Shown: positions 2,677 through 22,886, counted from the first letter of the stretch. The stretch is 23,939 nt of DNA from a virus (IMGVR_UViG_2823670853_000004:1-23939); one strand, 5' to 3'. A program made the numbers and translations. Notes: generated from the sequence alone by a model not told the origin.

Positions 2677-3022
2677 TCTCTGCTCCTGTTGATACGGAAA
2701 GGGAAACAGGCACACCGTTATTACGCCGCCCGGTCAGCTCCACCACCATTGAACCGTCAAAATTGCTGTTGATGGTGATGGAATCCAGCGTCAGCCGTGG
2801 CTCCCAGCGACTCAGCGCCACATACACTGCCGACATGACCTGCAGGCGTAATGCCGGATTTTGTGGCTGGTCTATCAGTGTCGACAGCAGGGAACCATAT
2901 TCACGACGGGCAATGCGGCTACCCTGCGGTGTCAGTAGAATGTCCCGCACCGACTGACGCAGATGGTCAATATCAGTAATGGCTTTACCGCTGGTATTGT
3001 TCATCCCGATATAAAGCGTCAT
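2663..3022 (-). CDS. W: Baseplate wedge protein (gpW-like)
   Basis: 119 aa, P2 gpW-like (RREYGSLLSTLIDQPQNPAL); ATGA overlap with V stop. Confidence 0.8.
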   Translation of the reverse strand: MTLYIGMNNTSGKAITDIDHLRQSVRDILLTPQGSRIARREYGSLLSTLIDQPQNPALRLQVMSAVYVALSRWEPRLTLDSITINSNFDGSMVVELTGRRNNGVPVSLSVSTGAENGSD

Positions 3023-3597
3023 ACCGGGCCTCCGGTTGTATCGCCGCCTTTCAGGACGCCAGTATGCTGATGCGCATCAACCACGATCCCGTTAGAACCC
3101 ATCGCTCCGCCGCCCTGGGTAACGCCACCATTGATCACCACTTCACTGTTAATGCGCGTGCGGTCAGCCTCCAGTACAAACTCACTGGTTTTCATGGTGA
3201 TGTTGTCAGCGGCCTCAATGACCATTGATTTGATGCCCCTGACATGCCAGCGTCCGGTGGCGGGTTCGTATTCAAACCAGCCACCGTCAGGATGTTCTGT
3301 CACGCAGGCGTCCGCCGACGTCGACGGTGGCGCGAACTGATTCGAATAGATGGCGGGTAACGCAAAGGCGGTTTCCAGATTGCCGCCCAGACTCAGCAGC
3401 ACCACCTGCTCACCTTCCGATGGTCGCCACCATGTGCGGGCATTCCCGGCACGCAGCGTCAGCCAGCTGATCCAGTTAGTTTCAAGCTCGCCCGTTTTCA
3501 CCCGGCAAAGCCAGTTTTCCCGGTCCACTTCGGTGACTACACCTGTGCGGATCAGGTTGGTGATAAGGCGCATGATTTCGGTTAATTGTGCGTTCAT
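3019..3597 (-). CDS. V: Baseplate spike/assembly protein (gpV-like)
   Basis: 192 aa; Gly-rich C-terminus (VINGGVTQGGGAMGSNGIVVDAHQHTGVLKGGDTTGGPV) typical of gpV spike proteins; first gene of a late operon. Confidence 0.8.
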   Translation of the reverse strand: MNAQLTEIMRLITNLIRTGVVTEVDRENWLCRVKTGELETNWISWLTLRAGNARTWWRPSEGEQVVLLSLGGNLETAFALPAIYSNQFAPPSTSADACVTEHPDGGWFEYEPATGRWHVRGIKSMVIEAADNITMKTSEFVLEADRTRINSEVVINGGVTQGGGAMGSNGIVVDAHQHTGVLKGGDTTGGPV

Positions 3598-3643
3598 AGG
3601 GAAAGGTTGCCATCAGGGGAAGAAAGGCGGCAGTGCTGCAACT

Positions 3644-3661
3644 TGTATCAGTGCTGGTACA
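3644..3661. promoter_or_regulatory. TGT-N12-ACA dyad in the S-V intergenic region, candidate Ogr/B-type late-activator site
   Basis: Exact TGT(atcagtgctggt)ACA, centre 55.5 bp upstream of the V start codon; same geometry as the dyad upstream of P. Confidence 0.4.
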
Positions 3662-5948: not shown

Positions 5949-6144
5949 AGTCCTCCCGCGAGATCTGCCCGTCGCGCAGAAGCTGGTAGGCTTTGTGTTT
6001 GTAGTACCAGTTGATAGCCAGCATCAGCACACCAATCATCAGGCCGCCCAGCGTTGAGGCATCCTTGATGGACAAATCGCCCAGCCAGGCCAGCACAACG
6101 GCGATGCAGTACGTGATAAAGGCGCTGATTCGCTCAAGCGTCAT
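5929..6144 (-). CDS. Y: Holin (likely pinholin-type, two TM helices)
   Basis: 71 aa, two hydrophobic helices and charged C-terminus, directly upstream of the endolysin. Confidence 0.7.
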   Translation of the reverse strand: MTLERISAFITYCIAVVLAWLGDLSIKDASTLGGLMIGVLMLAINWYYKHKAYQLLRDGQISREDYESINR

Positions 6145-6147
6145 AAT

Positions 6148-6351
6148 TCAGTCCCATAGCTGGACGGTCTGCACGGTGGTGGTGGTCGGAATGTCCGGCA
6201 GCTCCACCTGCAGCCCGTGAGGTAAAAAGGGGCCATATTCGGCAAGCCCCGGATTTGCCTTCAGTACCTGCTCCGTGACACCCTGCGTGCGCCCGTAATG
6301 ACGCCAGCAAAGCGCGTCCACCGTGTCATACTGATGCGCACGCACTTTCAT
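6148..6351 (-). CDS. X: Tail protein X (gpX-like)
   Basis: 67 aa, same length and position as P2 gpX between L and the holin. Confidence 0.7.
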   Translation of the reverse strand: MKVRAHQYDTVDALCWRHYGRTQGVTEQVLKANPGLAEYGPFLPHGLQVELPDIPTTTTVQTVQLWD

Positions 6352-6878
6352 CAGATAAGCTCCACTGTGCAGTGCGGCGCATCCTGCACCCGGCTGATGG
6401 CCCAGCGGGCGTCACGCCACAAATCACCGCTGGATTCCGCCAGTTCCTCGCCTCGCTTCACACCGGATGCCGTGGCGTCATAGTCCTGGTATCGTTCGTT
6501 GAGCATGGCGCGTGCCCAGCAGTAAACCGCGTTGAAATAGTGCTGAATGCGCTCACTTTTGCCGTCCAGCTGTTCCGCCGGAACCTCAGCCAGCGACACA
6601 TACCCCAGCATCTGCTGACGTCTGCGAAACTCATACAGCTCTGCGTTGACCTCCGAAATTGCCGACAGCGCAACCTGCTTTAAACGCGGCTGCGTCACCG
6701 TGCCGTCAGTGCGCATGACACTGCGAAATTCCGACAGGTCCACATCAGGCCAGAACGGCGTGTTTCTGATGATTTCCGCCTGTTCCGGTGCCTGTTCTGG
6801 CGCAACAAACTTCATGCTGCTTTCTCCTGAAATAGAGGGCGGTGGACGGGGTTTTGATGTGGCAGTGCCTTTCGCCAC
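6351..6878 (-). CDS. L: Head completion/stabilisation protein (gpL-like)
   Basis: 175 aa, P2 L position downstream of M. Confidence 0.75.
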   Translation of the reverse strand: MAKGTATSKPRPPPSISGESSMKFVAPEQAPEQAEIIRNTPFWPDVDLSEFRSVMRTDGTVTQPRLKQVALSAISEVNAELYEFRRRQQMLGYVSLAEVPAEQLDGKSERIQHYFNAVYCWARAMLNERYQDYDATASGVKRGEELAESSGDLWRDARWAISRVQDAPHCTVELI

Positions 6879-6910
6879 CCCGTGCCGCCCGTGCGCGGGG
6901 GCACGTTCTG

Positions 6911-7561
6911 TCAGCGGCTGTCATTGCGCAGTCTGCGCTCCAGCTGCTGTTTGTCTTTTTTCACGCCACAGCGGGGATCGAGCTGTAACGCATGGTTGAG
7001 ATGATTAAGGGCGGAAGCCGGGTTGCTTTCACTCAGGACAGCGCCAATCGCTTTATGCAGACGCGCCCGTGACTGGTCCGGCATATCCAGACCGTCTGTC
7101 AGCTCCAGCGTCTGCAGCAACAGATCGGCATCAAAGCCGGTGGCGGCAAGCATTGCGCTCTGCGCCGCGTCTGCCATTTCCTCTGCCAGCACGGTCTGCA
7201 CGTTGCGGTTACCCAGCGGCATCACCCAGCCATGACGCAGGGCATGACGCCCGATCTCCAGCGCCCCGGCATAATCTCCGGCATCAATGCGCCACAGCAT
7301 CACGTACATCAGCACGTCATCCTGTTGAGCGCCTCCGGCAGCCAGAACGCCCTCCGCCCAGGCGGTATATTTCGGCAGCAGCTCCACCTTGATTTCCGCT
7401 TTTTTGACCGTGGACTGAACGCCCTTGAGACGGCGGCGGTCTTCCGCCAGTTGCAGCAGCATCAGGTCATAGCCCGATGCGTGGCGAACACTGCCGCCCT
7501 CGCGGGCGGCCTGTTCAGCCTGAACGCGCAGGCGATGCTGCCGTGCGGGACTCAGGCTCAT
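6911..7561 (-). CDS. M: Terminase small (endonuclease) subunit (gpM-like)
   Basis: 216 aa, Ala/Leu-rich, P2 M position after the capsid gene. Confidence 0.8.
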   Translation of the reverse strand: MSLSPARQHRLRVQAEQAAREGGSVRHASGYDLMLLQLAEDRRRLKGVQSTVKKAEIKVELLPKYTAWAEGVLAAGGAQQDDVLMYVMLWRIDAGDYAGALEIGRHALRHGWVMPLGNRNVQTVLAEEMADAAQSAMLAATGFDADLLLQTLELTDGLDMPDQSRARLHKAIGAVLSESNPASALNHLNHALQLDPRCGVKKDKQQLERRLRNDSR

Positions 7562-7564
7562 GGA

Positions 7565-8623
7565 TTACGCTCCGGTTTCGGCTGCGGCGGCGCTGAAATC
7601 ACCAATCTGGATGTTTTCCACCAGTGCGGCGCAGCGGTAGTCCTCAACCACATAGGCTTCATTAACGGATTCAAAGTTTTCAATCCGGTCACGTTTCGGG
7701 TTGTCGATAACTGAACGGCGGCGGGTGTCTTCCTGCCAGTAGATGGACAGGTTATCCAGACGGGTGATCAGCAGTGCATTCGGCGGGAAGAACGGCGCAC
7801 GCACGGCCTGCAGGCCACCCATGCGTTTCTGACTGATGATCATATCGGCAGCGAGTTTTTCACTGTTTTCCTGCTCTTTGTTGACCAGCGGGAAATACTT
7901 GTCAGACAGCAGTTCACGACCGCAAATCACCACCAGATCGTCATCGTCCTGGTAGACCACGTCGATAAGCTCATTAACGGCATCCATCACCACGGCGTCC
8001 AGGTTGGCATATTCGCCACCTTTACCGACTTTCACCGCGCCCGGTGTGGTTTCACCGCCCGTGGTGGTGCTGCCCATGACGTGATCCGGTGCATCCTCAC
8101 GGATTTTCTGCAGCCAGCCTTTGTTCACATCCTGTAGCAGCGGGTTTTCACTACGGTTGGAGGTTTTCGCACGCTTCACGCCGTTAAAGCCGATCATGAT
8201 GCGGTCCAGTGCCTGACGTTTCACGATGGCGTCACGGATACGCACCTGGAAATCCTGAAACTTCGCCCACAGGTCCAGCTTCGCGTAGGTCAGCACCGTG
8301 TCAAAGTTGGTCTGCTCGCATTTATATTCCACATCGACCATCAGCGTCGGATCGACAGGTTCACGCTCTTTCGCGGTGGTGTCAGTGGTTCCGGCAATGG
8401 TGCTGCCAACACCCAGCCCCAGCAGCTGACCGGACTGCTCAGTCACTGGCGTGACGTTAATCAGCGTCAGGAAAGCGGCGGACTGCTGGATCTGGTCTTC
8501 CAGCGTCTGCTGCACAGACGGCTCCACAGTGAATTTGCTGGACAGTTCTTCAACTGCCACACCGTTCAGACGCGCCAGCTGCTGCAGGTAAGCGTTAAAA
8601 GCAAAGCGGGTATTCTTCTTCAT
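7565..8623 (-). CDS. N: Major capsid protein precursor (gpN-like)
   Basis: 352 aa, P2 gpN-like length and position after scaffold gene O. Confidence 0.9.
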   Translation of the reverse strand: MKKNTRFAFNAYLQQLARLNGVAVEELSSKFTVEPSVQQTLEDQIQQSAAFLTLINVTPVTEQSGQLLGLGVGSTIAGTTDTTAKEREPVDPTLMVDVEYKCEQTNFDTVLTYAKLDLWAKFQDFQVRIRDAIVKRQALDRIMIGFNGVKRAKTSNRSENPLLQDVNKGWLQKIREDAPDHVMGSTTTGGETTPGAVKVGKGGEYANLDAVVMDAVNELIDVVYQDDDDLVVICGRELLSDKYFPLVNKEQENSEKLAADMIISQKRMGGLQAVRAPFFPPNALLITRLDNLSIYWQEDTRRRSVIDNPKRDRIENFESVNEAYVVEDYRCAALVENIQIGDFSAAAAETGA

Positions 8624-9615: not shown

Positions 9616-11382
9616 ATGAACACCACACTGACACCCGCAGATCTCGATCCCCGTCGGCAGGCCATGCTGCTGTACTTTCAGGGATACCGCGTAGCCCGCA
9701 TTGCTGAAATGCTGGGCGAGAAAGTTGCAACCGTTCACAGCTGGAAAAAACGCGACAAGTGGGGTGACTATGGGCCGCTGGATCAGATGCAGCTCACCAC
9801 CGCCGCACGCTACTGCCAGCTCATTATGAAGGAGCACAAAGAAGGGAAAGATTTCAAAGAGATTGACCTGCTGGCGCGCCAGTCGGAGCGCCATGCGCGG
9901 ATCGGCAAGTTTAACAATGGCGGCAACGAAGCCGACTTAAACCCTAACGTCGCCAACCGCAACAAAGGCCCGCGCCGTCAGCCGGAAAAGAACGTTTTCA
10001 CCGATGAACAGATTGAGAAGCTGGAAGAAATTTTCCATTCCTCCATGTTCAACTACCAGCGCCACTGGTGGGAAGCCGGAAAAACCAACCGCATCCGCAA
10101 CCTGCTGAAGTCACGCCAGATCGGCGCGACCTTTTACTTTGCCCGTGAAGCCCTGATTGACGCCCTGCTTACCGGACGTAACCAGATTTTCCTTTCTGCC
10201 AGTAAGGCACAGGCTCACGTCTTTAAGCAGTACATCATCGACTTCGCCAAAGAAGTGGAGGTGGAGCTGAAAGGCGATCCGATGGTGCTTCCTAACGGGG
10301 CCACGCTTTACTTCCTCGGCACCAATGCCCGCACGGCCCAGAGTTACCACGGCAACCTGTATCTGGATGAATATTTCTGGATACCAAAATTTCAGGAGCT
10401 GCGCAAAGTGGCTTCCGGTATGGCTATTCACAAGAAATGGCGGCAGACCTATTTTTCCACACCATCCAGCCTGACCCACAGTGCTTATCCGTTCTGGTCC
10501 GGTGCGCTGTTCAACCGTGGGCGCAACAAAGCTGACAAGGTGGACATCGACCTGTCCCACAGCAATCTGGCCCCCGGCCTGCTGTGCGCAGACGGGCAAT
10601 ACCGCCAGATAGTCACCGTGGAAGATGCGGTGCGCGGCGGCTGTAACCTGTTCGACCTCGACCAGCTACGCATGGAGTACAGCCCAGACGAATACCAGAA
10701 CCTGCTGATGTGCGAGTTCGTGGACGATCTCGCGTCCGTGTTCCCGCTCAGCGAACTGCAGGCGTGCATGGTGGACAGTTGGGAAGTCTGGACCGACTTT
10801 CATGCACTGGCCCTGCGCCCGTTTGGCTGGCGCGAGGTGTGGATCGGTTATGACCCGGCAAAAGGTACGCAGAACGGCGACAGTGCCGGATGCGTGGTGG
10901 TGGCTCCGCCAGCCGTGCCGGGCGGTAAGTTCCGCATTCTTGAGCGTCACCAGTGGCGCGGGATGGACTTCCGTGCCCAGGCGGACGCCATCAAAAAACT
11001 GACTGAACAGTACAACGTGACCTATATCGGTATCGACTCGACAGGTGTCGGTCACGGGGTTTATGAGAACGTGAAAGCGTTCTTTCCTGCCGTCCGGGAG
11101 TTTGTCTACAACCCCAACGTTAAAAACGCCCTGGTACTCAAGGCCTACGACATTATCAGCCACCGCCGTCTGGAGTTTGACGCCGGACACACCGACATAG
11201 CGCAGTCCTTTATGGCAATCCGTCGCGCCACCACCGCCAGTGGCAACCGCCCGACCTATGAAGCCAGCCGCAGCGAAGAAGCCAGCCACGCCGATCTGGC
11301 CTGGGCAACGATGCACGCACTGTTTAACGAACCGCTGCAGGGCGAATCCGCCAATACCAGCAATATTGTGGAGATTTTTTGA
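9616..11382 (+). CDS. P: Terminase large (ATPase) subunit (gpP-like)
   Basis: 588 aa; N-terminus MNTTLTPADLDPRRQAMLLYFQGYRVARIAEMLGEKVATVHSWKKRDKW is P2 gpP-like; stop overlaps Q start. Confidence 0.9.
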   Translation: MNTTLTPADLDPRRQAMLLYFQGYRVARIAEMLGEKVATVHSWKKRDKWGDYGPLDQMQLTTAARYCQLIMKEHKEGKDFKEIDLLARQSERHARIGKFNNGGNEADLNPNVANRNKGPRRQPEKNVFTDEQIEKLEEIFHSSMFNYQRHWWEAGKTNRIRNLLKSRQIGATFYFAREALIDALLTGRNQIFLSASKAQAHVFKQYIIDFAKEVEVELKGDPMVLPNGATLYFLGTNARTAQSYHGNLYLDEYFWIPKFQELRKVASGMAIHKKWRQTYFSTPSSLTHSAYPFWSGALFNRGRNKADKVDIDLSHSNLAPGLLCADGQYRQIVTVEDAVRGGCNLFDLDQLRMEYSPDEYQNLLMCEFVDDLASVFPLSELQACMVDSWEVWTDFHALALRPFGWREVWIGYDPAKGTQNGDSAGCVVVAPPAVPGGKFRILERHQWRGMDFRAQADAIKKLTEQYNVTYIGIDSTGVGHGVYENVKAFFPAVREFVYNPNVKNALVLKAYDIISHRRLEFDAGHTDIAQSFMAIRRATTASGNRPTYEASRSEEASHADLAWATMHALFNEPLQGESANTSNIVEIF

Positions 11383-12413
11383 TGGGAAAGAGTAAGAAGA
11401 ACCGAGCTGCGGCGACGAAACAGCTCAAGCATAAAAGCCAAACTTCAGCCGAAGCATTCAGCTTTGGCGATCCCGTTCCTGTTCTGGACCGCCGCGAACT
11501 GCTGGACTATGTGGAATGCGTACAGACAGATCGCTGGTATGAGCCACCAGTAAGCTTTGACGGACTGGCGCGCACCTTCCGCGCTGCCGTGCATCACAGT
11601 TCACCAATTGCGGTGAAATGCAACATTCTGACCAGTACCTACATCCCTCACCCGCTGCTCAGCCAGCAGGCTTTTTCACGTTTTGTGCAGGACTATCTGG
11701 TATTTGGTAACGCCTACCTGGAGAAACGCACGAACCGCTTCGGTGAAGTTATCGCCCTTGATCCTGCTCTGGCAAAATACACCCGACGCGGGTTAGACCT
11801 GGATACCTACTGGTTTGTGCAATACGGTATGACAACCCAGCCGTATCAGTTCACGAAAGGCAGCATTTTTCATCTGATGGAACCGGATATTAATCAGGAG
11901 ATCTACGGCCTGCCCGGCTATCTTTCTGCCATCCCATCCGCTTTGCTCAACGAGTCCGCCACGCTGTTCCGCCGGAAGTATTACATTAACGGTAGTCATG
12001 CAGGCTTCATCATGTACATGACCGATGCCGCGCAGAACCAGGAGGATGTGAACAACCTCCGCAATGCGATGAAAAGCGCCAAAGGCCCTGGCAACTTCCG
12101 CAATCTGTTTATGTACTCGCCTAACGGCAAAAAGGACGGACTTCAGATTATCCCGTTGTCAGAAGTCGCAGCGAAGGATGAGTTTCTGAATATCAAAAAC
12201 GTGAGCCGTGATGACATGATGGCTGCGCACCGCGTGCCGCCACAAATGATGGGGATAATGCCTAGTAATGTCGGGGGGTTTGGGGATGTGGAGAAGGCCG
12301 CGAAGGTTTTTGTAAAAAATGAATTGAAACCACTTCAGCAAAGGCTAATCGAAATTAATAACTGGCTATGTGAGGATGTTATTCTATTCCAAAAATATTC
12401 GTTCAAAGAATAA
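11379..12413 (+). CDS. Q: Portal (capsid vertex) protein (gpQ-like)
   Basis: 344 aa, same length as P2 gpQ; translationally coupled to P. Confidence 0.9.
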   Translation: MMGKSKKNRAAATKQLKHKSQTSAEAFSFGDPVPVLDRRELLDYVECVQTDRWYEPPVSFDGLARTFRAAVHHSSPIAVKCNILTSTYIPHPLLSQQAFSRFVQDYLVFGNAYLEKRTNRFGEVIALDPALAKYTRRGLDLDTYWFVQYGMTTQPYQFTKGSIFHLMEPDINQEIYGLPGYLSAIPSALLNESATLFRRKYYINGSHAGFIMYMTDAAQNQEDVNNLRNAMKSAKGPGNFRNLFMYSPNGKKDGLQIIPLSEVAAKDEFLNIKNVSRDDMMAAHRVPPQMMGIMPSNVGGFGDVEKAAKVFVKNELKPLQQRLIEINNWLCEDVILFQKYSFKE

Positions 12414-12429
12414 CATCCCTCACGTGCAA

Positions 12430-12464
12430 TATAACAAACAAAAAAATTTTGTTTGTTATATTTT
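12430..12464. terminator. Bidirectional hairpin between convergent Q and the GmrSD-like gene; T-run on plus strand
   Basis: Perfect inverted repeat TATAACAAACAAAA (12430-12443), loop AAA, TTTTGTTTGTTATA (12447-12460), followed by TTTT (12461-12464). Stem is AT-rich, so strength is uncertain. The minus-strand stop codon of the GmrSD-like gene (12456-12458) lies inside the right arm. Confidence 0.5.
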
Positions 12465-14039
12465 ACCTGTCATAGCTTTTAAAGCAAGTTCATTTAAATC
12501 CTCTTCGCGCTGGTTTATAAAATCACCATAAGCACTCTTTCCATTCCGTAGATTCGGATGAATCACCGCAGCATCAAAGATCATATCCCTCTCAGCCTCA
12601 TGCACTGTTGGAAAGTACACATCAGGATTCGAATCTGAAATTTGATTATTATCCTGAGCAGTTAAAAATGCAATATTAGCTATTATATTTGACTCATGAA
12701 ATGGAATTCCTTGCCTAGCCAGGTATGCCTTCGGATATATGTGGTGGAATTGTCTTGAATTATATGCTGACAAAGATGTATCAAGGTCAACCACCTTGCC
12801 TGTAATAAAACTCCGTGGAGACAACTGAGCTAACAAGCAAATAGATGCTTTTGCTGCTGAGGAATTAATTCTCCAAGTTTTTCTAAAAAACCCGGTTTCA
12901 ATTTTAGGTACTGGTTGAATATAATCATCTGGAGTACTTATAACGCTATCCATGGCGATAACATCCTCCATAACATAGGTGTTTGTTCCTGCTTTATATC
13001 TTTGCGAAAATGCACAACACCAAAACCATCTTTTAATTGAACTATATTGATAACCCGTTGGGCGAGAGACCTTTGAGAAAAAATAGGTTATAGGTACTAA
13101 CATTATTGGGAATGGTAAAAAAATTGAATTTTTTATTTTTAGATCATTAGCTAAAAAATCAACGGCATTGCGGATACCTCTTTTTAAATCCTCCATTGCG
13201 GATAGAAGAGTTGTTGGATCAATGTCAATCAAAGTATCAGAATCAATCTTCTTATTGATTATTGCCGTCAAACAACGCATCAAAAGAATTTCATCAATCT
13301 GCTCATATCCAACTGACGCAAGATATTCTTTTAATGAATCCATTTCTGTGCGCAAATCAAATTTTTCTGACCATGTCCAAGCCGTTAGCAACTCAATTGT
13401 ACTTAAACTTGTACCAGATGAGTTAATTCTCTGGAATATTCTACAAACTTCTTGATTACTTCTTTCTTTAATCGTAACAATAGGGAACTCATAATCTTTA
13501 AATTTATCAACTAAATTTGCGATTCTATCTTGCTCATCTGCCGGGAATCGTCTTAATTCAGGCAGTAGTTTTGAGGTATCAAGAATACTGCTTAATGCAA
13601 CACTATTTTTTCCTTTTGGTATATCGACAACATTGCAAAAACTATCCGTAGCAGGAATATAATGTATATTAAATCTAGATGCCAAATCACTGTTTTCTGT
13701 TTTCCTGTGGGCATTGAATACTCCAAATAAAGTTGTTAACCGCTGCTGCCCATCCAAAACATAATTAACAGGATAATCTTCTTTCACGTCAGGAAGATGA
13801 AAACCTCCTACATTTCTTTCAAACTTTAACGGTGTCTTTGTTGACCATAATAACAACGAGCCAACAGGGTAACCACTATAAATGGAGTCAATCAAACCTA
13901 ATATCTGCTCATCCGTCCATACGAAATCACGTTGAAACGCAGGAATTTTAATATTTCCACGGGTAACATCATCCAATAAAGATGCTAATCTTTGGTTACC
14001 TGAATCAATCTTTTTCTTAGAGTTTACATTATTTTCCAT
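12456..14039 (-). CDS. DUF262/DUF1524 (GmrSD-family) putative type IV modification-dependent restriction nuclease
   Basis: 527 aa. N-terminal DUF262 motifs IPAFQRDFVW and VLDGQQRLTTLFG; C-terminal DUF1524-type His-Me finger motifs FHHIYPKA and NIAFLTAQDNNQISDSNP. AGGA ribosome-binding site 6 nt upstream. Gene is AT-rich by eye. Confidence 0.8.
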   Translation of the reverse strand: MENNVNSKKKIDSGNQRLASLLDDVTRGNIKIPAFQRDFVWTDEQILGLIDSIYSGYPVGSLLLWSTKTPLKFERNVGGFHLPDVKEDYPVNYVLDGQQRLTTLFGVFNAHRKTENSDLASRFNIHYIPATDSFCNVVDIPKGKNSVALSSILDTSKLLPELRRFPADEQDRIANLVDKFKDYEFPIVTIKERSNQEVCRIFQRINSSGTSLSTIELLTAWTWSEKFDLRTEMDSLKEYLASVGYEQIDEILLMRCLTAIINKKIDSDTLIDIDPTTLLSAMEDLKRGIRNAVDFLANDLKIKNSIFLPFPIMLVPITYFFSKVSRPTGYQYSSIKRWFWCCAFSQRYKAGTNTYVMEDVIAMDSVISTPDDYIQPVPKIETGFFRKTWRINSSAAKASICLLAQLSPRSFITGKVVDLDTSLSAYNSRQFHHIYPKAYLARQGIPFHESNIIANIAFLTAQDNNQISDSNPDVYFPTVHEAERDMIFDAAVIHPNLRNGKSAYGDFINQREEDLNELALKAMTGKI

Positions 14040-14131
14040 TGATATTCCTCACAGGGGTAAATCTATAATAGAATTTCATAAAATCATAACGTTTTCAATT
14101 GCAACATTACAGTTAAACATCCTTGCGCGCG

Positions 14132-14150
14132 CTCGTATCCCCGCCACGCC
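14132..14150 (-). other. Candidate cos cohesive-end site
   Basis: Minus strand reads GGCGTGGCGGGGATACGAG; first 13 nt match the 186/P2 cohesive end as I recall it (GGCG[T/A]GGCGGGGAAAGCA[T/C]). Lies in a short GC-rich segment between two AT-rich cargo genes. Recalled consensus, not verified. Confidence 0.3.
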
Positions 14151-14195
14151 TGCCCGCTTTATGTAGCAGTTTTCATGCACCTGCATGATCTACGC

Positions 14196-14219
14196 AAAAG
14201 CCCGCCAGAACTGGCGGGC
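14196..14219 (-). terminator. Rho-independent terminator for minus-strand transcription from the A-side cargo genes
   Basis: GC-rich inverted repeat GCCCGCCAG/CTGGCGGGC (14200-14219) followed on the minus strand by TTTTG (complement of 14196-14199). Confidence 0.5.
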
Positions 14220-14323
14220 CTTAACACAAAAGATCCTCAAACGATCATGCGATCTCATGCAGCATAGACATGCGCGTTTATGCAGAATGTGCAAAATCGT
14301 AACATACTCAGTAAGCGTGAAAC

Positions 14324-15001
14324 CTAGAACGTGACAGCCTTGTCAAAGCCAGAAATAATTGTATAAGAAATAGACGAGTTATCAGCCTTGTTCACTTTGA
14401 ACTTGGCACCTTTGTAAGCGATAACGTCACTTCCCTTAGAATCTACAGAAAAATCTGTTGTAAATGCTGCACGAGCCATATCGTTTGCAAATTCACGATA
14501 GGTGAACTTCATTACACCGCCTGCATTTCCATTGTATTCGATAGTCTTAACCAATGAGTTACTAACTCGACACAGCCCATCAGGAACACGTTTGATAGAA
14601 ATTTCTGATGCAGTATAAGAAGTACCATTTGGCGGTGATATCTCATTTTTTGCAGCATCGTAACTAACATAATCAACATAGTTACCGATTTGCCCATAGA
14701 GATTTTTTAACGCAACAGCTTGAGGGTTATGATAATTGCGGTAAATTCCATTCCCCTCACTGCAATATGTACCAGCAGCGATAGAAGACAATGCACCATT
14801 AGCCGCACCAAGTTCTAGTACGTCCGTTTTAAATCCAGTAGCAGATGTGATAATGGGATCGCCCATGTAGGCGGTAGCACTTTGCCCAATAGCAGGCTTC
14901 ACCACTTCAATAGCAGTGATATTTCGGTTAGAAGCATGTGGCACGCAACCAGTTAGGATTACAGCAAGAGATATTGGTAACGCTACATTATTAATTTTCA
15001 T
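14324..15001 (-). CDS. Putative lipoprotein of unknown function (about 225 aa precursor)
   Basis: ORF 14324..15055 trimmed to ATG at 15001: MKINNVALPISLAVILTGC has a signal peptide and lipobox (LTGC). Mature part is Ser/Thr/Asn/Gly/Tyr-rich with alternating-hydrophobic beta-strand character, ends in Phe, two Cys. AT-rich. No family recognised. Confidence 0.6.
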   Translation of the reverse strand: MKINNVALPISLAVILTGCVPHASNRNITAIEVVKPAIGQSATAYMGDPIITSATGFKTDVLELGAANGALSSIAAGTYCSEGNGIYRNYHNPQAVALKNLYGQIGNYVDYVSYDAAKNEISPPNGTSYTASEISIKRVPDGLCRVSNSLVKTIEYNGNAGGVMKFTYREFANDMARAAFTTDFSVDSKGSDVIAYKGAKFKVNKADNSSISYTIISGFDKAVTF

Positions 15002-15025
15002 TTTTAGCCTATTATTCTTTTCTTG

Positions 15026-15060
15026 ACAAAAAACAAGGCGATATCTGATTGACATCGCCT
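15026..15060 (-). terminator. Possible weak terminator between the DinI-like gene and the lipoprotein gene
   Basis: Inverted repeat AGGCGAT/ATCGCCT (15036-15060) with an 11-nt loop, followed on the minus strand by TTGTTTTTTG. Loop is long, so weak. Confidence 0.3.
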
Positions 15061-15114
15061 CTCACTCATATGTAACCCTTTTTGATTAGTAAAAACAAGC
15101 GTCTATTGACAAAA

Positions 15115-15348
15115 TCAATGCAGCCAGCTGTCGTCTTCCCACACCTTCTGCATAATTTTCATCACTTGTTTTCTTTCTTCGTACAGTTGCAGTCCGGTCA
15201 GTTCCACACCGTTAGAGCTACCTTTACGGATACGGATTACCGTTTTGGGATACAGGGGGCGCAGATTGCGGTAAAGCTCGGATTCAAGGGCGTCCAGGGT
15301 AGACTGGCTAATCTTCTGCTCTTTATCGATCATTATTTCAATGCGCAT
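15115..15348 (-). CDS. DinI-family protein (77 aa)
   Basis: ORF-track entry 15115..15420 trimmed to ATG at 15348 (MRIEIMIDKEQ...), GAGGTGA Shine-Dalgarno 5 nt upstream. Aligns by eye with E. coli DinI (MRIE start, LDAL..EL, YP, C-terminal WEDDSWL versus WESADDW). Confidence 0.75.
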   Translation of the reverse strand: MRIEIMIDKEQKISQSTLDALESELYRNLRPLYPKTVIRIRKGSSNGVELTGLQLYEERKQVMKIMQKVWEDDSWLH

Positions 15349-15358
15349 AAAAGTCACC

Positions 15359-15547
15359 TCAGCTGATGACATCCATTGAGCGGTTGTATTCGTGGCTTCT
15401 GATTTTTGCCATGAGTTCATCAGTCAATTCAGAAACCCACTGCAGAGCCAGCCCCTTCTCTTCATCACTACACTCACTAGCCGCTACAAGCTTAAGAAAA
15501 AAATCAATGCGCTGGAGCTTCAAAGACTCCAAAAAATAGTCCTGCAT
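15359..15547 (-). CDS. Small acidic protein (62 aa), first gene of the LexA-controlled operon; possible antirepressor-like (Tum N-terminal-like) protein
   Basis: Strong AGGAGGA ribosome-binding site 4 nt before the ATG; LexA box at the promoter; stop TGA lies 10 nt before the DinI-like ATG. The antirepressor assignment is by analogy with 186 tum, not sequence recognition. Confidence 0.55.
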   Translation of the reverse strand: MQDYFLESLKLQRIDFFLKLVAASECSDEEKGLALQWVSELTDELMAKIRSHEYNRSMDVIS

Positions 15548-15589
15548 CTTTCCTCCTATGACACCACACGCAATGCTGTATGCATAACC

Positions 15590-15608
15590 ACTGTTTATAT
15601 TTACAGTA
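15590..15608. promoter_or_regulatory. LexA (SOS) box overlapping the promoter of the 62-aa/DinI-like operon
   Basis: ACTGTTTATATTTACAGTA, i.e. CTGT-N8-ACAG with an AT-rich spacer, about 45 bp upstream of the 62-aa ORF start; flanked by -35-like TTTACA and -10-like TATACT on the minus strand. Confidence 0.7.
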
Positions 15609-15701
15609 TATAATAATCTTACTGATGTAAAACGTTTTTTTTACGCTTATCAGCCTGATATGCCTGGTATTATTAAGAGCACGAATTGTTAACCAGCGTA
15701 A

Positions 15702-18143
15702 TTAATACAGGTTCCGCCACTTATCATCTTCCTGCAAACGCTGGTTCCGATAGAAGATACGCAGGCCTGCTCCTGACGGAATACTGCCGCCGCGAAGGAG
15801 TAAATCGACCTCTTTCTCGCTGCCATCAAATCCTCTGGATTTCAGTTCATAGACGAGATGCTGTCGTTGATGGTCTGTAATTCGCTGTTTGTAGTCTCTA
15901 CGCCGTTTCGGTTTCACCAGACGTAACCTTGCAGCCAGTTCCCGGCGCTCCTTTTTGTTCATACTGTGCAGGTAATCGTGCAACACCTTGTCATCCATGC
16001 GGGTAATGTCCGTTCTGGGGTCCCCATCAGCTGATTTATCTTTCTCCTGTTGGTTCAAATTTTCAGCAAGGGGACAGTTATTGCCACGAGTCCAAGGGGC
16101 GCAAGCGCCCTGGTCGGCTGCCGCCTCCTGAACGTCAACGGCCTTACGAACCATTTTCCACTTCACCGCATGAGTGCAGATCTTGCCCTCTGCAATGGGT
16201 GACCAGATGCCATAAATACGAATACCGTGATCGCCATATGCGGTCGGTTCTTCGTTGATTTCATAAGCAGTTCTGATGAGGTGATATTTGCGGGGAACCA
16301 GTACGCCGCCCTGCTTCATGATGTAGGTGGCAAAACAACCAGCATCAGCAGCAGCCAGGATTGCATCAAGGCGCGGGTTATCCAGTACCGGCGCACCTGC
16401 TTTTTTGTCCCCCTGTTGCCTTGCCGACTGACCAGCCAGCAATCGCAGTTCACGGTAAGCCTGACGCCCCGGAATGCCAAAGAAGCGGAATTGCTGAACA
16501 CGATGCAGAGACGCCCAGGCATTAACGTATTCAGCGTTATCACGCAGGGATTTACCCGTTTCCTTGCTGATCTCGCCAGCCAGACCACGCCCGTCAATGT
16601 TCTTACTGATGTATTTCGCGATGTAGCTTGTTGGCGTACCTTTGCGCGGGTTTATCAGCTCAGACTTAAAGCGTGGTCCCGTGTTATTACCCAGCTCCTC
16701 GCGGTCTTCACGAATGGCAAACTTACGCAACAAAGCAGTAATGGTGCGGCGATCTTTTTTGCGCATAAAACACAACAGGTGCCAGTGAACTGTACCGTCA
16801 TGATGCGGCTCAGCCACCCGCACGCCATACCAGCGCAATCCGGCTTTGTGCATCGCCTTACGAAATGCAGCAAACATGCCGACCAGATAATCACTGCTTT
16901 GTATTACCGTCGTATTTGTCCAGGTCGGGTTGGGCCTGCCGTTATTTAGCGTGGAATGGAAACGTGACGGACAGGTGATGGTGTAGAAAACGGCGCAGTC
17001 ACCGCGCATTTCCGCGATAAGCTCCAGACCTTTAACACAGGCCATCATCTCATTGCGGCGATGCGCAGGGTTGCTGCTGCTGGCGTTTACCACATCCTCC
17101 ATGTCCAGCGTGTCGCCGTCTTCGTTCACCAGTTCATGAGAACGGAAAAACTCCAGCGACTTACGGCGCTGCTCACGTTTATGCATCACGGCTTCATAGC
17201 TGACATAGGGAGATGCTTTTTTGCTGACCAGGCAAACAGCACGCAACTGCTCTTCCCGCCATTCGCAACGCATCTTCCATAATTTCCGGTACCACCAATC
17301 GGCGCACAACATACGCGCCAGCGAACCCGGAATGAGTTCATAGGGCACGGGTTTACGGCGGTTTCTTTTCCGGCGGAGTTGCTCAAACGCAGGCGGTATG
17401 ACATCTAGTCGCAGGGTTTCTGCTGCCACCTTTTCCCATGTCTTGCGGATTTCTTCTGGCTTAACGTCATCGGTGGCATACAAATCGCCACAAGCTGCAT
17501 CAAGGCACATGCTCATATGCGCAGCAACAAGGGTGGACAGGCGTTTCACCTGATCCTGACTCATTTCAGGCAGAATCAGCAGGCCGTCCAGCCCTTCATG
17601 GCTTGCCATAAAGCGAAAAGAAGTGGATAGCTGACTGTCGCGTACATGCTCCAGTCGTTCCAGACATGGCTTAATCGTCTCACGTAAATAGCGGGAATAA
17701 GCCTTTGGCCTGCCCAGGCTGCTGAAGTATTCAATACGTTGCATCAGCGGCTTGCTGATATGGGAGGGCTGGGCGCTGACGTCTGCCAGAATGACCATGT
17801 CCGGGTTAAAACGCTGCTGCTCATGCGCCAACTTTGCCCGGCTAATGAGCTTATCCTGCTCCATTTCGCGCTGGACAGGATCACGGGATTCATTAAAGAA
17901 ATAACGCTCCCAGACCTGATCACTCAGTGCCTCGCGGCGCAGTTGTTCCTGCTCGTTATCGGTAGCGTACAGAGTGATCAGGTTTGAAAGCGCAGAAACC
18001 GGCGCAACTTCCGCCGGGTCCAGATAAGGGTTAATGGCTTTCTTAGGTAAATTCCACGAATAACCCCCGGCAGAATTCTCAATGCTACCGGAAGTTACAC
18101 TGACAAATGGATCGGCAAGACGGCCTGTGCTGATCTCTGTCAC
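15702..18143 (-). CDS. A: Replication initiation protein / rolling-circle endonuclease (gpA-like)
   Basis: 813 aa in the P2 A position, last gene of the early operon; contains a [12 protein letters not shown]-type Rep motif; start overlaps the upstream stop (ATGA). Confidence 0.9.
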
Positions 18144-19150
18144 TCACAGACTCCTGCATATACACTGCTGCACACCGCTTTATCATTCATGCCTGCCAGC
18201 AGGTCAAACTGCATACCGCCCCGAGTCGTTAAGGCCCAGTCCCGATAAGTTTCAATGCCATAAGCATCAACAGTTATGACTTCGATCCGTTTTTCAGCAC
18301 GGCGCGGATCATGCGTGGATGGAAAGAACGTTGAATTGCCACGTCTTGAACATTCCGCAACCAGTCTTTCCCACTCAGCCACTCGGCGGATTTCTTCTGG
18401 CCAGCGTTGGAAAATCTCTCCAAGTTCTGACTTGCGAGCATGAATGCATGGCATACAACCGACACGACTGCATCCCTGCATATAAAGGGGGTTAGGCTTA
18501 ATGCCATGACGTTTGGCAATAGCAAACACATCCTCATGCAGCCAATTAAGGATCGGACGATAAACATGCAGCCCCAGAGTATTGTCTGCATCGTCCTCCC
18601 ACTCAGGCAACAATGCACGTTCCGGTGATTCCTGCCCCCGGACTCCTTGCCAACTGATTACCTCATCGTATTCATCCAGAGCTGGATCGATTACCTGTGT
18701 ACGTATTGGTTCATGTTTCAGTTCAAAAGTGCAGAAACGAGCTTTTGTTGAAGGGAAGCGACCTTTCCACATGCACAAATCAAGAAACGGAACGCCGGTT
18801 GGTTTAAGGATTTCCAGTGCCCGGTAAATACGTTCCTCAGCCTCATCTGTCGACATACCACATTCCTCAACGAGAGAAATGGGCCACTTTTCCGCAATGA
18901 ATTTACGTTTCCCTTCTATCTGGCGTGTGAAATCCGCTTTGACGCGAATAATCTTGCCCAGCTTTGATTCCAGATAATCCAGATATTCTATTGTCTGTGG
19001 ATGTTCATGACCCGTATCGGCAAATACAGAAATATGCGGAACATCGTTTTCAATGGCTCTTAGCCATTGAGCGAGACTATCTTTGCCACCAGAAGTAGTG
19101 ATGACGTTAATGGTGCCTGAGGCAAAGCAACGCGGATCGATAGCATTCAT
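18140..19150 (-). CDS. PAPS-reductase-family (PP-loop ATP pyrophosphatase, DndC-like) protein
   Basis: 336 aa; N-terminal PP-loop TTSGGKDS; C-terminal Cys cluster ([11 protein letters not shown]); ATGA coupling to Dam upstream and A downstream. Confidence 0.8.
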
Positions 19151-19995
19151 GCGCGTACCTCAACGGTACGGTCAGAGCCGCTGGCAAAATCGACACCAAA
19201 CCACCCAGCTGATTTGGTGGCAATGATTTCTGTTGCAGATTTACTCTCGCCAGCTGACACGCCAATGCTGCGTTTTGTCTTGATGTAGTGGTGAGTGAAA
19301 TTGCGATACAGCGAGCGGATCAGGGATGTGTCACTGTTAGAAACAATGATCGGATGTCCTTCTGATGACCGATGTTCAAGAACGGATGCCAGGTGATACT
19401 GGTCATCTTCAGTGAAGCCGGCAGTGTGATAACCGGAAAACGTACCGTCATAAGGCGGATCGCAATACACAACATCCCCCGCGTGCAACATTGCCAGCGT
19501 TTCATCGAAGCTGGCGCAGATAAATGTTGCCCGCTGGGCTTTTTCTGCAAATGCACGAATTTCTTTTTCAGGGAAATACGGATTTTTATAATTACCGTAG
19601 GGAATGTTGAAATGCCCGCTCTTGTTATAGCGACATAAACCACGGTAACCGTGACGATTGAGATACAGGAAATATACTGCTTTCATGAAATCAGTAATTT
19701 CAGTTGAGTAATTAAACTCCTGCCTTATGTTGTAATAAGCCATCTCCCTGTTTGCGTTCTCAAATAAAACTCTGGCGCGAGATATAAACGATTCACAATC
19801 AGCGGCAACCTTTTTATAGAGGTTGATTAAATCAGGATTAATATCCGCAACCAGATAGCTGGGGTAATCCGTCTCCATCATCACTGCACAGGAACCCGCG
19901 AAAGGTTCAACCAGTCGCGGGCCAGCAGGAAGGTATTTTTTCAGTTCTGCCATAATGGCCGTTTTATTTCCCGCCCATTTCAAGATGGTGCTCAT
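19147..19995 (-). CDS. dam: DNA adenine methyltransferase (Dam family, probable GATC N6-adenine MTase)
   Basis: ORF 19147..20055 trimmed to ATG at 19995 ([11 protein letters not shown], the Dam N-terminal signature); catalytic DPPY motif ([10 protein letters not shown]); AdoMet-binding EPFAGSCAV. Start overlaps the zinc-finger gene stop (ATGA). Confidence 0.85.
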
Positions 19996-20219
19996 ACAGC
20001 ACCTCCGTTGTAATGTTTGCCTTTCAGTTCTGCGATTTCCTGACAGGTAATGCAAAGCTGCACTCCCGGAATGGCGCGGCGTCGTGCTGGCGGAATTGGC
20101 GCTTCACATTCAATGCAAAGTACGCGTGACACGCCCGGTGTTTTGGCACGGGCAGCACGGATATGGCGCTGGCGTTCTTCTTCAACGCGCTGCTGTACGA
20201 GATCCATTGCATCAGCCAT
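19992..20219 (-). CDS. TraR/DksA-family C4 zinc-finger protein
   Basis: 75 aa with CIECEAPIP...CITCQ (Cys-X2-Cys ... Cys-X2-Cys); position corresponds to the small zinc-finger ORF between B and A in P2-family phages. Confidence 0.7.
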   Translation of the reverse strand: MADAMDLVQQRVEEERQRHIRAARAKTPGVSRVLCIECEAPIPPARRRAIPGVQLCITCQEIAELKGKHYNGGAV

Positions 20220-21032: not shown

Positions 21033-21548
21033 TCACAGCAAACCGAATGAAGCACCAAGGCCAGTCATGGTATCAACTGCACTCGCCATCGCCGGGTTAG
21101 CCTGTAAACGGGCCTGCAATGAAACAGCAGCCAGCGCCATCAGTCGTGTTACAGAGTTAATGCTGCTGATAGCATCACGACGACCTGCACTGGTTTTTAC
21201 ATCGCCAGATACCGCACCTGCAGCAACACGCCCGATCTCTGCGGTTGCACTCATGACGTAATGCGGCAGTTTCTCTTTTGCTACCTCATTAATCGGTACA
21301 CATGGCAGACAATGAATCTGTGCCAGAAAACCATCTACCAGCGTTGAATCTTCAGTCAGATCGGTAAGCAGCCAGATTTCTGGTGCGGTTAATAGATGAG
21401 GCTGAGCTGGGTTCAGCTTGTTCCGCAGAATCTGCACATTCATGCCTGCACGTTCTGCCAGTTGCACCAGATTGTGGCGCAGTGCAAATGCACGACAGGC
21501 TTCATCAAAATGTGGATGTTTGGAAACTTGGTAATCAAACATGGTCAA
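21033..21548 (-). CDS. cII: CII-like lysogeny-establishment transcriptional activator (186 CII type)
   Basis: 171 aa; first gene after the Apl/Cox-like gene in the early operon; N-terminus [22 protein letters not shown] and length match my recollection of 186 CII (169 aa). Confidence 0.65.
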
Positions 21549-21915: not shown

Positions 21916-22491
21916 GTGACCATGAATTTGGAGAAAGGCGGACGAGGCGCTATAGAGCGCATGGTAGAAGCTTATGGATTCAAAACCCGACAGGCGTTGT
22001 GCGATCATTTAGGAATCTCTAAAAGTACACTCGCCACACGCTACATGCGTGACTCATTCCCAGCAGAATGGGTAATCCAGTGCGCCCTTGAAACGGGCAC
22101 CTCGCTTAATTGGCTCACAACCGGACATGGTTCAAAGCAAACTTCAGGTAATACAAATACTATGGAAGTTGCTAAATATGTATTATCTGATGGTGCCTTG
22201 CGTGAAGACGGTTTTTATATTTTTGATAAGGGATTTCTACCCTCTACGTTTAAAAAACCTTTTGTCATCACAGATAACAATTCTGAATTTATTTGTGATA
22301 AAGAATTTGATGATATACGTGATGGTAAATGGGTAATAAGTATTGATGGCGAAGTAACGATCCGTGACATTACTCGTTTACCCGGTGGAAGAATCTTCGT
22401 CGAGGGTGGAAACAGAGCCTTCGAATGTAAGATAGAAGACATTGAAATAATTGGTAAAATTATAAGTTTAACAGTCAAGTATGTTAAATAG
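21916..22491 (+). CDS. cI: Immunity repressor, 186 CI type
   Basis: 191 aa; GGAG ribosome-binding site 5 nt upstream; N-terminal helix-turn-helix region (EAYGF...CALETGTSLNWLTTGHG) and C-terminal LPGGRIFVEGGNRAFECKIEDIE resemble 186 CI as I recall it; far longer than the 99-aa P2 C repressor. Confidence 0.8.
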   Translation: MTMNLEKGGRGAIERMVEAYGFKTRQALCDHLGISKSTLATRYMRDSFPAEWVIQCALETGTSLNWLTTGHGSKQTSGNTNTMEVAKYVLSDGALREDGFYIFDKGFLPSTFKKPFVITDNNSEFICDKEFDDIRDGKWVISIDGEVTIRDITRLPGGRIFVEGGNRAFECKIEDIEIIGKIISLTVKYVK

Positions 22492-22506
22492 TACCGGGAG
22501 GAAACT

Positions 22507-22698
22507 ATGCTTGGTAAGGTATTTTTTGTGGTTTTGTCATGTTCTTTGTTATTAAACCCACTAACTACCTATGCTAGAAATTATCCCTGCTCAGGGAAAA
22601 AGGGAGGTGTTTCTCACTGTACCTCAGATGGCAAATTCGTTTGCAATGATGGAACTATTAGTAAATCCAAAAAAATCTGTACTAAAAACTCACGATAA
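22507..22698 (+). CDS. Small secreted Cys-rich protein (63-aa precursor), unknown function
   Basis: GGAGG ribosome-binding site 7 nt upstream; hydrophobic signal peptide ([19 protein letters not shown]); about 40-aa Lys/Gly/Ser/Thr-rich mature peptide with four Cys; AT-rich; sits between cI and int. Confidence 0.5.
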
Positions 22699-22886
22699 CT
22701 TTTGCTTTTATATCTGCGTCTAAAATAAAAATGAGCCGCAGGTTAACCGCAAAAGTTACATGCTCACATAGCAAAAAGAATAGCCAACTTCATTATGGCT
22801 TCAGTGAGATGTATGGTCGTAGGATTTCATACATTGACACTGGTTATACATACAGTAAAAATGCTCTCTACTGGAGGGCATTTTTT

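Follow-up and report, generated by a model that had tools for sequence, protein, structure and literature searches.

Four modules of probably different turnover in the cos-proximal accessory region of a 186/Fels-2-type prophage

Introduction

The cos-proximal region between the replication gene A and the portal gene Q (gpA-gpQ) of P2-like phages has been described as a defence hotspot, of which Escherichia coli has 1,650 arrangements (Rousset et al. 2022, PMC9122126). Table S5A of that study lists among its occupants the lipoprotein WP_000700647, the TumA protein WP_001154431, DinI, and several DUF262 or DUF262/DUF1524 proteins (PMC9122126). Here we characterize the same region in a stretch of viral DNA of 23,939 nucleotides (IMGVR_UViG_2823670853_000004:1-23939; the whole stretch is called the window), in which positions 12414 to 15701 between Q and A hold a GmrSD/BrxU-like gene with a DUF262 domain, the cohesive-end site cos, a lipoprotein gene, and the SOS-controlled pair tumA-tumB. 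The hotspot itself has already been described by Rousset et al., and our analysis does not overturn the current understanding of it.

Genes related to these by sequence or by position are known from other systems. According to the GenBank record of phage 186, expression of its gene orf97 from a plasmid blocks 186 infection. A stop codon divides the tum gene of Fels-2 and PSP3 (Lemire et al. 2011, PMC3121763, citing Bunny et al. 2002), and the upstream half of the split gene is reported to encode the antirepressor (PMC3121763). The GmrSD family is marked by an (I/V)DGQQR nucleoside triphosphate (NTP)-binding motif, a QR pair, and FxxxN (Machnicka 2015, PMC4619093), and D507, the acidic residue of the D-H dyad, is essential in Eco94GmrSD (PMC4619093).

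Results

Organization of the Q-A interval

The interval from the stop codon of Q (12413) to that of A (15702) is 3,288 bp in length. Its GC content is 38.4%, compared with 50.9% in the whole window and 50 to 57% in the genes P, Q, and A, and this AT-rich interval with the features listed in Table 1 is real, far beyond chance. We aligned the Q-A region by blastn with 14 relatives (Fels-2, SopEPhi, a Klebsiella phage, a Yersinia phage, an E. coli phage, a Kosakonia prophage, and eight E. coli prophages) and counted its genes in 5,426 complete E. coli genomes. The interval is probably best described as a cos-proximal accessory region made up of four modules with very different turnover rates.

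The first module is the Q-to-cos slot (12414-14124), whose contents differ in each relative, while the DNA to its right is 97 to 99% identical. We found 13 different cassettes in this slot across the 14 relatives, and at least 10 different defence-type cassettes among relatives with flanks that are 97 to 99% identical. The occupants in the relatives are AbiU (Fels-2; E value, 2.7e-112), AIPR, retron St85, ThsB-TIR with a partner, PIN_12, SEFIR/TIR, a canonical GmrSD (HEC-06), an NsnA/PD-T4-2-like DUF262 protein with HEPN, and several sets of hypothetical proteins. The DUF262 gene of the window was present in only one of the 5,426 E. coli genomes, that of strain MEI4O1-23, where it is 100% identical. 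Judging from these alignments, the slot is a fast-turnover defence hotspot, the cassettes of which would be swapped between nearly identical phages.

The second module, the block at 14125-14273 around cos, is common to all 14 relatives, including those without the lipoprotein. The third, the lipoprotein cassette (14274-15114), is present in the Fels-2 group; phages 813R9 and MLG42 lack it and have an 83-nt gap at its place, and it is replaced by two other genes in SopEPhi and by orf97 in 186. Its lipoprotein gene was found in 50 E. coli genomes. The fourth module is backbone throughout, from the tumB stop codon toward A, and the tum operon in it occurs in 1,125 genomes at 95 to 99% identity.

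Base composition agrees with these modules: the DUF262 arm has a GC content of 34.7%, the lipoprotein cassette 39.6%, and the cos module 54%. At third codon positions, the GC content (GC3) is 27% in the DUF262 gene and 31% in the lipoprotein gene, the latter value pointing to a foreign origin, whereas tumA (52%) and tumB (58%) are backbone-like and near A (56%) and Q (59%). Each transcription unit of the interval ends in its own hairpin terminator, and the three hairpins (12421-12469, 14197-14222, and 15035-15061) are far more stable than shuffled sequence, with z scores of -4.6 to -8.2. An Rfam scan of positions 12000 to 16000 found no RNA family. A promoter scan yielded no more sites than shuffled sequence did and missed the p95-like promoter with its -10 element TACTGT.

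A preliminary description of this DNA had foreseen about 3.3 kb of nonstructural DNA in a P2/186-like prophage, divided by cos into two arms, with a GmrSD-like gene on the Q side and with cargo genes that carry their own terminators. All of these points were confirmed, and a resemblance of the Q-side protein to defence proteins was recovered in profile searches, as detailed below. Its further statement that the cargo is AT-rich holds for the DUF262 and lipoprotein genes and fails for the tum genes.

The same description regarded the whole 3.3 kb as a single dispensable cargo island, comparable to P2 tin/old, with three nonessential moron units. The overall AT-richness, the location in the hotspot defined by Rousset et al. 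(2022), and the lack of structural genes in the interval agree with this. Nevertheless, we consider a single island very improbable, and conservation has already largely refuted it: variation among close relatives is confined to 12414-14124, the cos module is conserved and GC-rich, and tumA-tumB, with their backbone composition and their near-identical copies in so many E. coli genomes, are the documented induction switch of this phage group. The proposal that the tum pair is dispensable cargo therefore has to be given up. Likewise, the pair is SOS controlled as predicted, but only tumB is DinI-like, and the two genes together represent a split tum. Insertion boundaries could be drawn for the hypervariable slot and the lipoprotein cassette. 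P2 old and tin are located on the A side of cos, so that their counterpart here is the lipoprotein slot and not the GmrSD slot. Finally, the expected hotspot for anti-phage functions is supported by the cassettes on the Q side, although it is not a new one.

The cos module and the cassette junction

The 19-nt cohesive end matches that of 186 at 15 of 19 positions, with the first 13 identical, and the flanks align as well. In addition to the cohesive end, the module consists of 7 shared nucleotides on the Q side (14125-14131) and about 120 nucleotides on the A side, and it would be needed by every relative for packaging. The hairpin within it (14197-14222; folding energy, -21.8 kcal/mol; z score, -4.6) aligns with the 186 region upstream of cos and is the positional equivalent of the 186 terminator t95b.

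In each of the 14 relatives, the right edge of variability of the slot falls at 14114-14125, and shared sequence on the Q side starts at one identical base, with GCGCGCG followed by the cohesive end; 186 and P2 carry GCGCGCA at this place. In contrast, the breakpoints on the Q side of the slot are diffuse (12298-12403) and lie within the 3' end of Q. A junction at the same base near cos, together with a diffuse breakpoint in Q, suggests that cassette exchange is anchored at cos. The junction also suggests that, on the Q side of cos, terminase requires hardly any sequence for recognition. The route of exchange may be end-joining of heterologous left arms combined with a crossover in Q; exchange through cos would account for the identical base, 7 nt from the cohesive end, at which homology starts. 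In the 3' end of Q, identity to the relatives falls to 88 to 93%, compared with 97 to 99% on the A side of cos.

The GmrSD/BrxU-like protein of the Q-to-cos slot

Residues 19 to 221 of the DUF262 protein match the Pfam family GmrSD_N (PF03235; E value, 2.8e-35; cutoff, 33.2 bits), and PADLOC profiles gave matches to PDC-M55C over the full length (E value, 1.6e-64) and to HEC-05 (E value, 2e-34). The DUF262 motifs are present as VLDGQQRLTTL, FQRDF, LIDS, and FQRIN, and residues Q36, R37, D96, G97, Q98, Q99, R100, F202, and N206 do not vary among 36 homologs or in a set that reaches down to 22% identity. H432, H433, N455, and N464 of the C-terminal motif FHHIYPK...N455...N464 are also invariant down to 22% identity. 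With a profile that includes distant homologs, residues 424 to 521 align to residues 468 to 580 of BrxU (DUF1524 HNH, DHIYP; independent E value, 0.0092), and the same profile matches whole BrxU with an E value of 2.2e-27. A Foldseek search with the AlphaFold model returned BrxU (PDB 7p9k) as the sole significant fold match, over the full length (E value, 5.5e-9). Furthermore, a homolog with 22% identity to the protein has a subthreshold match to GmrSD_C (E value, 0.029).

Based on these likenesses, the protein is most probably a stand-alone GmrSD/BrxU-like nuclease and a putative modification-dependent restriction enzyme. Its gene would be expressed in the lysogen; the DUF262 domain would bind and hydrolyze NTP, and the putative C-terminal His-Me finger would cut incoming phage DNA, most likely DNA with modified bases, which would protect the host and the prophage.

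Proteins of this family have about 523 residues and are 55 to 58% identical from Pseudomonas and Variovorax to Serratia. Homologs are encoded in Pseudomonas aeruginosa at the edge of a Pf prophage, in Serratia within a chromosomal island, and in the Kosakonia P2-like prophage within the Q-to-cos slot. We found no PDC-M55 partner genes next to the Serratia and Pseudomonas homologs, and therefore we consider the gene to stand alone. The P. aeruginosa homolog (57% identity; positions 6001-7575 of the locus examined) is a lone gene adjoining a Pf-type filamentous prophage with Zot and coat B genes; thus, a DUF262-type, defence-like gene rides on or beside a very different kind of phage. A literature search for 'PDC-M55' returned no mention, and the protein (WP_089640884) was not found in the searched part of the tables of Rousset et al. 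(2022).

Several observations weigh against the assignment to the GmrSD-type restriction enzymes. His stands in place of the acidic residue of the D-H dyad (H432-H433). Pfam GmrSD_C (PF07510) did not match the isolated C-terminal half even at E values up to 10, and hhalign against one HEC-06 protein aligned the N-terminal domain alone. PADLOC lists the subfamily as a candidate only, PDC-M55C being named as one gene of a multigene candidate, and the promoter scan detected no sigma-70-like promoter for the gene. In the AlphaFold2 model, the predicted local distance difference test (pLDDT) score is 30 to 55 at residues 1 to 100 and 186 to 230; the alignment behind this model was shallow in diversity, with 36 sequences of 54 to 87% identity. 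The poorly modelled N-terminal DUF262 domain is the best-conserved part of the sequence, and the C-terminal two-thirds is modelled with confidence.

Judging from the change from D-H to H-H, the protein belongs to a distinct H-H subfamily of GmrSD-like proteins. This change, together with the failure of Pfam GmrSD_C, might also mark a protein that is not a modification-dependent type IV restriction enzyme but a DUF262 nuclease with another kind of sensor. It could be an SspE-like nicking enzyme that responds to a DNA feature or to the depletion of nucleotides, or an abortive-infection nuclease that, once activated, attacks host and phage DNA alike. Weak PADLOC and PDB matches to SspE and to further DUF262 proteins whose mechanism is unknown would fit such a role, as would the fact that most cassettes of the slot are of the Abi type (AbiU, AIPR, retron, TIR, and PIN). 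We regard this alternative as unlikely, because the closest solved full-length relative, BrxU, is a bona fide type IV enzyme, and no dnd/ssp or methylase partner adjoins the gene in any context examined. A modification-dependent nuclease thus remains our preferred reading.

The tum operon

By analogy with PSP3 and Fels-2, from which the antirepressor role is taken, tumA-tumB is the SOS-induction switch of the prophage and not cargo. The -10 element of the promoter is formed by the first 6 nt of the LexA box, which is the layout of the annotated 186 promoter p95, and the CTGT-N8-ACAG core of the box (15591-15606) is the only one in the whole window. TumB is 40% identical to residues 71 to 145, the C-terminal half, of 186 Tum, and the annotation of its Fels-2 ortholog notes a similarity to PsP3 TumB. 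TumA and STM2728 of Fels-2 are 96.8% identical. We rejected the idea that TumA is homologous to the N-terminal half of 186 Tum, as similarity was undetectable.

The p95-like LexA promoter, the 186-type CI encoded in the window, and the literature on split tum genes together identify the pair as the induction switch. This is a life-cycle function conserved in the relatives, and hence the pair does not count as cargo. In the proposed course of events, DNA damage would remove LexA from the operon, TumA would inactivate the 186-type CI repressor and so induce the prophage, and TumB would act as a DinI-like modulator of RecA.

The lipoprotein cassette

The signal peptide of the lipoprotein, MKINNVALPISLAVILTG followed by C, fits the lipobox L-(A/S/T)-(G/A)-C. 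Across 22 homologs, G18 and C19 do not vary and there are two invariant Cys residues, and residue +2 is Val (Val or Ala across the homologs), not Asp; the protein is probably located in the outer membrane. We place its start at 15001 and not at 15055, since the longer open reading frame of 243 codons overruns the upstream terminator; RefSeq also takes the start that gives 225 codons. The only family match was to phrog_1353, of unknown function. The protein is 99 to 100% identical in Fels-2, Klebsiella phages, and the 50 E. coli genomes. Homologs with 53 to 61% identity occur in islands not of the P2 type, where AbiC-like, OLD-like, or MobA genes adjoin them. Distant ones (24 to 27% identity) are carried as morons among the tail genes of unrelated siphophages of Acinetobacter and Moraxella, at positions 2962-3642 of the examined locus of Acinetobacter phage Ab1656-2 and 2974-3651 of that of Moraxella phage Mcat28. 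The Acinetobacter homolog lies just upstream of the tape-measure gene and adjoins a DUF4258/HTH toxin-antitoxin-like pair. The lipoprotein is cargo, but only on a longer time scale than the occupants of the Q-to-cos slot.

The terminator between tumB and the lipoprotein gene (-16.6 kcal/mol; z score, -4.9) corresponds in position to the partial terminator t95a of 186, downstream of which lies orf97. The lipoprotein and Orf97 (243 amino acids), which has an N-terminal transmembrane segment and not a lipobox, are by sequence positional analogues only. In a Salmonella microarray study of a Fels-2 lysogen treated with the mutagen MX, STM2726, STM2727, and STM2728, which are orthologous to the genes for the lipoprotein, TumB, and TumA, were all significantly induced, 14.8- to 2.6-fold (P of about 0.01 or less; PMC2225428), and STM2727 showed the smallest P value of the LexA-regulon table, with 14.8-fold induction at the top MX dose (PMC2225428, Tables 2 to 4). 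Based on the orf97 position and this co-induction of the Fels-2 orthologs, we favour, with low confidence, a role of the lipoprotein as an SOS-co-induced envelope exclusion or receptor-masking factor. Its gene would be transcribed by read-through past the terminator after tumB and would therefore rise with the SOS response. The protein, made from the tum promoter at induction, would prevent superinfection or conceal the receptor and thereby save progeny phage from loss on the induced cell. In function it would then parallel 186 Orf97 and T5 Llp while having an unrelated fold.

Some points tell against such a role. The terminator that would have to be passed looks strong, with its folding energy and T run. 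Homology to Orf97 was rejected (BLASTP E value, 4.5), and the lipoprotein gave no match to a Pfam family or to a known fold. The induction by MX in Fels-2 could reflect prophage replication instead of read-through, and the case for exclusion is built from position and co-induction only.

The separate upstream terminator and a weak promoter-like site (TTGTCA-18-AAAAAT, 15029-15000) would also suit a serious rival, namely, that the lipoprotein is a moron serving host fitness or virulence, expressed from its own promoter in the lysogen and acting in serum resistance or envelope modification as lambda Bor and TraT do, without any relation to phage exclusion or SOS. The presence of homologs in nonphage islands and near a plasmid mobilization (MobA) gene, and the near-complete conservation across Salmonella, Klebsiella, and E. 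coli lysogens, can be read in the same way. We judge this to be somewhat unlikely, in that the Fels-2 ortholog is induced with the tum genes by a DNA-damaging agent, the gene occupies the position of 186 orf97, which blocks infection, and the protein resembles neither Bor nor TraT nor any known virulence lipoprotein. An SOS-co-induced envelope factor therefore remains the reading we tentatively prefer. A combined proposal, in which the lipoprotein is a new factor of this kind and the Q-to-cos cassettes are exchanged through cos itself, is doubtful in its entirety.

Genes beyond the interval

The window comprises the right-hand half of a P2-family prophage, in the reverse orientation of the standard P2 map. 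From the gene content of CII, 186-type CI, and integrase, it follows that the element is an SOS-inducible member of the P2 family of the 186/Fels-2 type and not of the P2 type. A gene for a DksA-like protein also lies beyond A, after the PAPS-reductase-like and Dam methylase genes. A GC trough at about 22000-22800 (35%) spans cI and the spacer between cI and int.

The PAPS-reductase-like gene is absent in Fels-2 and in the 98.6%-identical prophage of E. coli MEI4O1-23, and it is present in 186 (orf84) and in a Kosakonia prophage. This locus is a third presence/absence spot of the same phage. We rejected a linkage of this gene to the DUF262 gene, because MEI4O1-23 carries the identical DUF262 gene and no PAPS-reductase gene.

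Table 1. Features of the Q-A interval and of neighbouring genes in the window
Feature	Position	Strand	Evidence or remark
Terminase P	9616-11382	+	
Portal gene Q, left anchor	11379-12413	+	Pfam Phage_portal
AT-rich bidirectional hairpin, between convergent Q and DUF262 genes	12421-12469		Inverted repeat I1; -16.7 and -18.9 kcal/mol on the two strands, z scores -8.2 and -6.0; belongs to variable cassette
GmrSD/BrxU-family protein, 527 amino acids, sole gene of Q-to-cos slot	12456-14039	-	Pfam GmrSD_N
cos module, about 150 bp	14117-14273		Conserved in 14/14 relatives
cos cohesive end, 19 nt	14132-14150		Reads GGCGTGGCGGGGATACGAG on - strand; match to 186 cos
Terminator hairpin after lipoprotein gene, GC-rich with T run, in cos module	14197-14222	-	Inverted repeat I5
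Lipoprotein, 225 amino acids, all-beta, payload of moron cassette 14274-15114	14324-15001	-	Lipobox LTG-C
Intrinsic terminator between tumB and lipoprotein gene	15035-15061	-	11-bp stem, T run
tumB, 77 amino acids, DinI family	15115-15348	-	Pfam DinI, E value 1e-21
tumA, 62 amino acids, putative LexA-controlled antirepressor of 186-type CI	15359-15547	-	phrog_698, E value 6e-38
p95-like SOS promoter	15589-15631	-	-35 TTTACA (15626-15631), 17-nt spacer, -10 TACTGT (15603-15608)
LexA box TACTGTAAATATAAACAGTG	15589-15608		Overlaps -10; 17/20 match to LexA consensus
Replication gene A, right anchor	15702-18143	-	Pfam Phage_GPA, E value 8e-126
PAPS-reductase-like gene, between A and Dam methylase	18140-19150		Pfam PAPS_reduct, E value 5.7e-34
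Dam methylase	19147-20055		
CII	21033-21548		PF06892
186-type CI repressor	21916-22491		PF07022 and PF16452
Integrase	Runs off window end (23939)		

Discussion

The base-pair anatomy of the hotspot can guide cloning, as only 12414-14124 behaves as the fast-swapping defence slot, and the tum genes, being the induction switch, should be left out of constructs meant to carry cargo. The H-H subfamily of GmrSD-like proteins is large and proteobacterial, and one plaque assay would annotate thousands of genes. Besides, the lipoprotein represents an orphan family in clinically relevant prophages of Salmonella, Klebsiella, and E. coli, the Fels-2 member of which appears to be damage induced.

In comparison with the hotspot of Rousset et al., the locus, the flanking genes, and the variable defence cassettes by cos are the same. 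There, however, A to Q is treated as one locus, whereas we divide it into two slots of different turnover, a fixed cos module, and the core tum operon. We further add a rare occupant from the H-H GmrSD-like subfamily, a lipoprotein tied to the position of 186 orf97, and a homology that starts, in every relative, at the same base 7 nt outside the cohesive end.

The DUF262 protein resembles BrxU and Eco94GmrSD in being a single chain with a DUF262 domain (QR, L(F/I)DS, DGQQR, and FxxxN) and a putative C-terminal His-Me finger, which aligns to the DHIYP region of BrxU, and, like BrxU, it is encoded by a single gene on a mobile element. It differs from both in having an H-H instead of a D-H dyad and in the undetected Pfam GmrSD_C, and from BrxU (587 residues, compared with 527 here) in a 2-residue deletion and an identity of only about 18%.

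P2 old and tin are nonessential exclusion genes between A and cos, but they are nonhomologous to the genes described here, and on their side of cos, the A side, they are transcribed in the opposite direction; the four proteins of the interval gave no Pfam or PADLOC match to OLD (AAA ATPase plus TOPRIM) or Tin.

The SOS operon of 186 has p95, tum, t95a, orf97, t95b, and cos in the same order and orientation between A and cos, and it shares the LexA box over the -10 element, a DinI-like moiety, and an envelope protein of 225 to 243 amino acids between two terminators. In 186, however, tum is unsplit, whereas here, as in Fels-2 and PSP3, there are two genes; TumA is unlike the N-terminal half of Tum, and the lipoprotein is nonhomologous to Orf97. 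Fels-2 (STM2723.1-STM2728) differs from the window in carrying AbiU in the Q-to-cos slot and in lacking the PAPS-reductase-like gene next to A, but from cos to A its layout is identical and its DNA 96% identical, with the lipoprotein 99% and TumA 97% identical.

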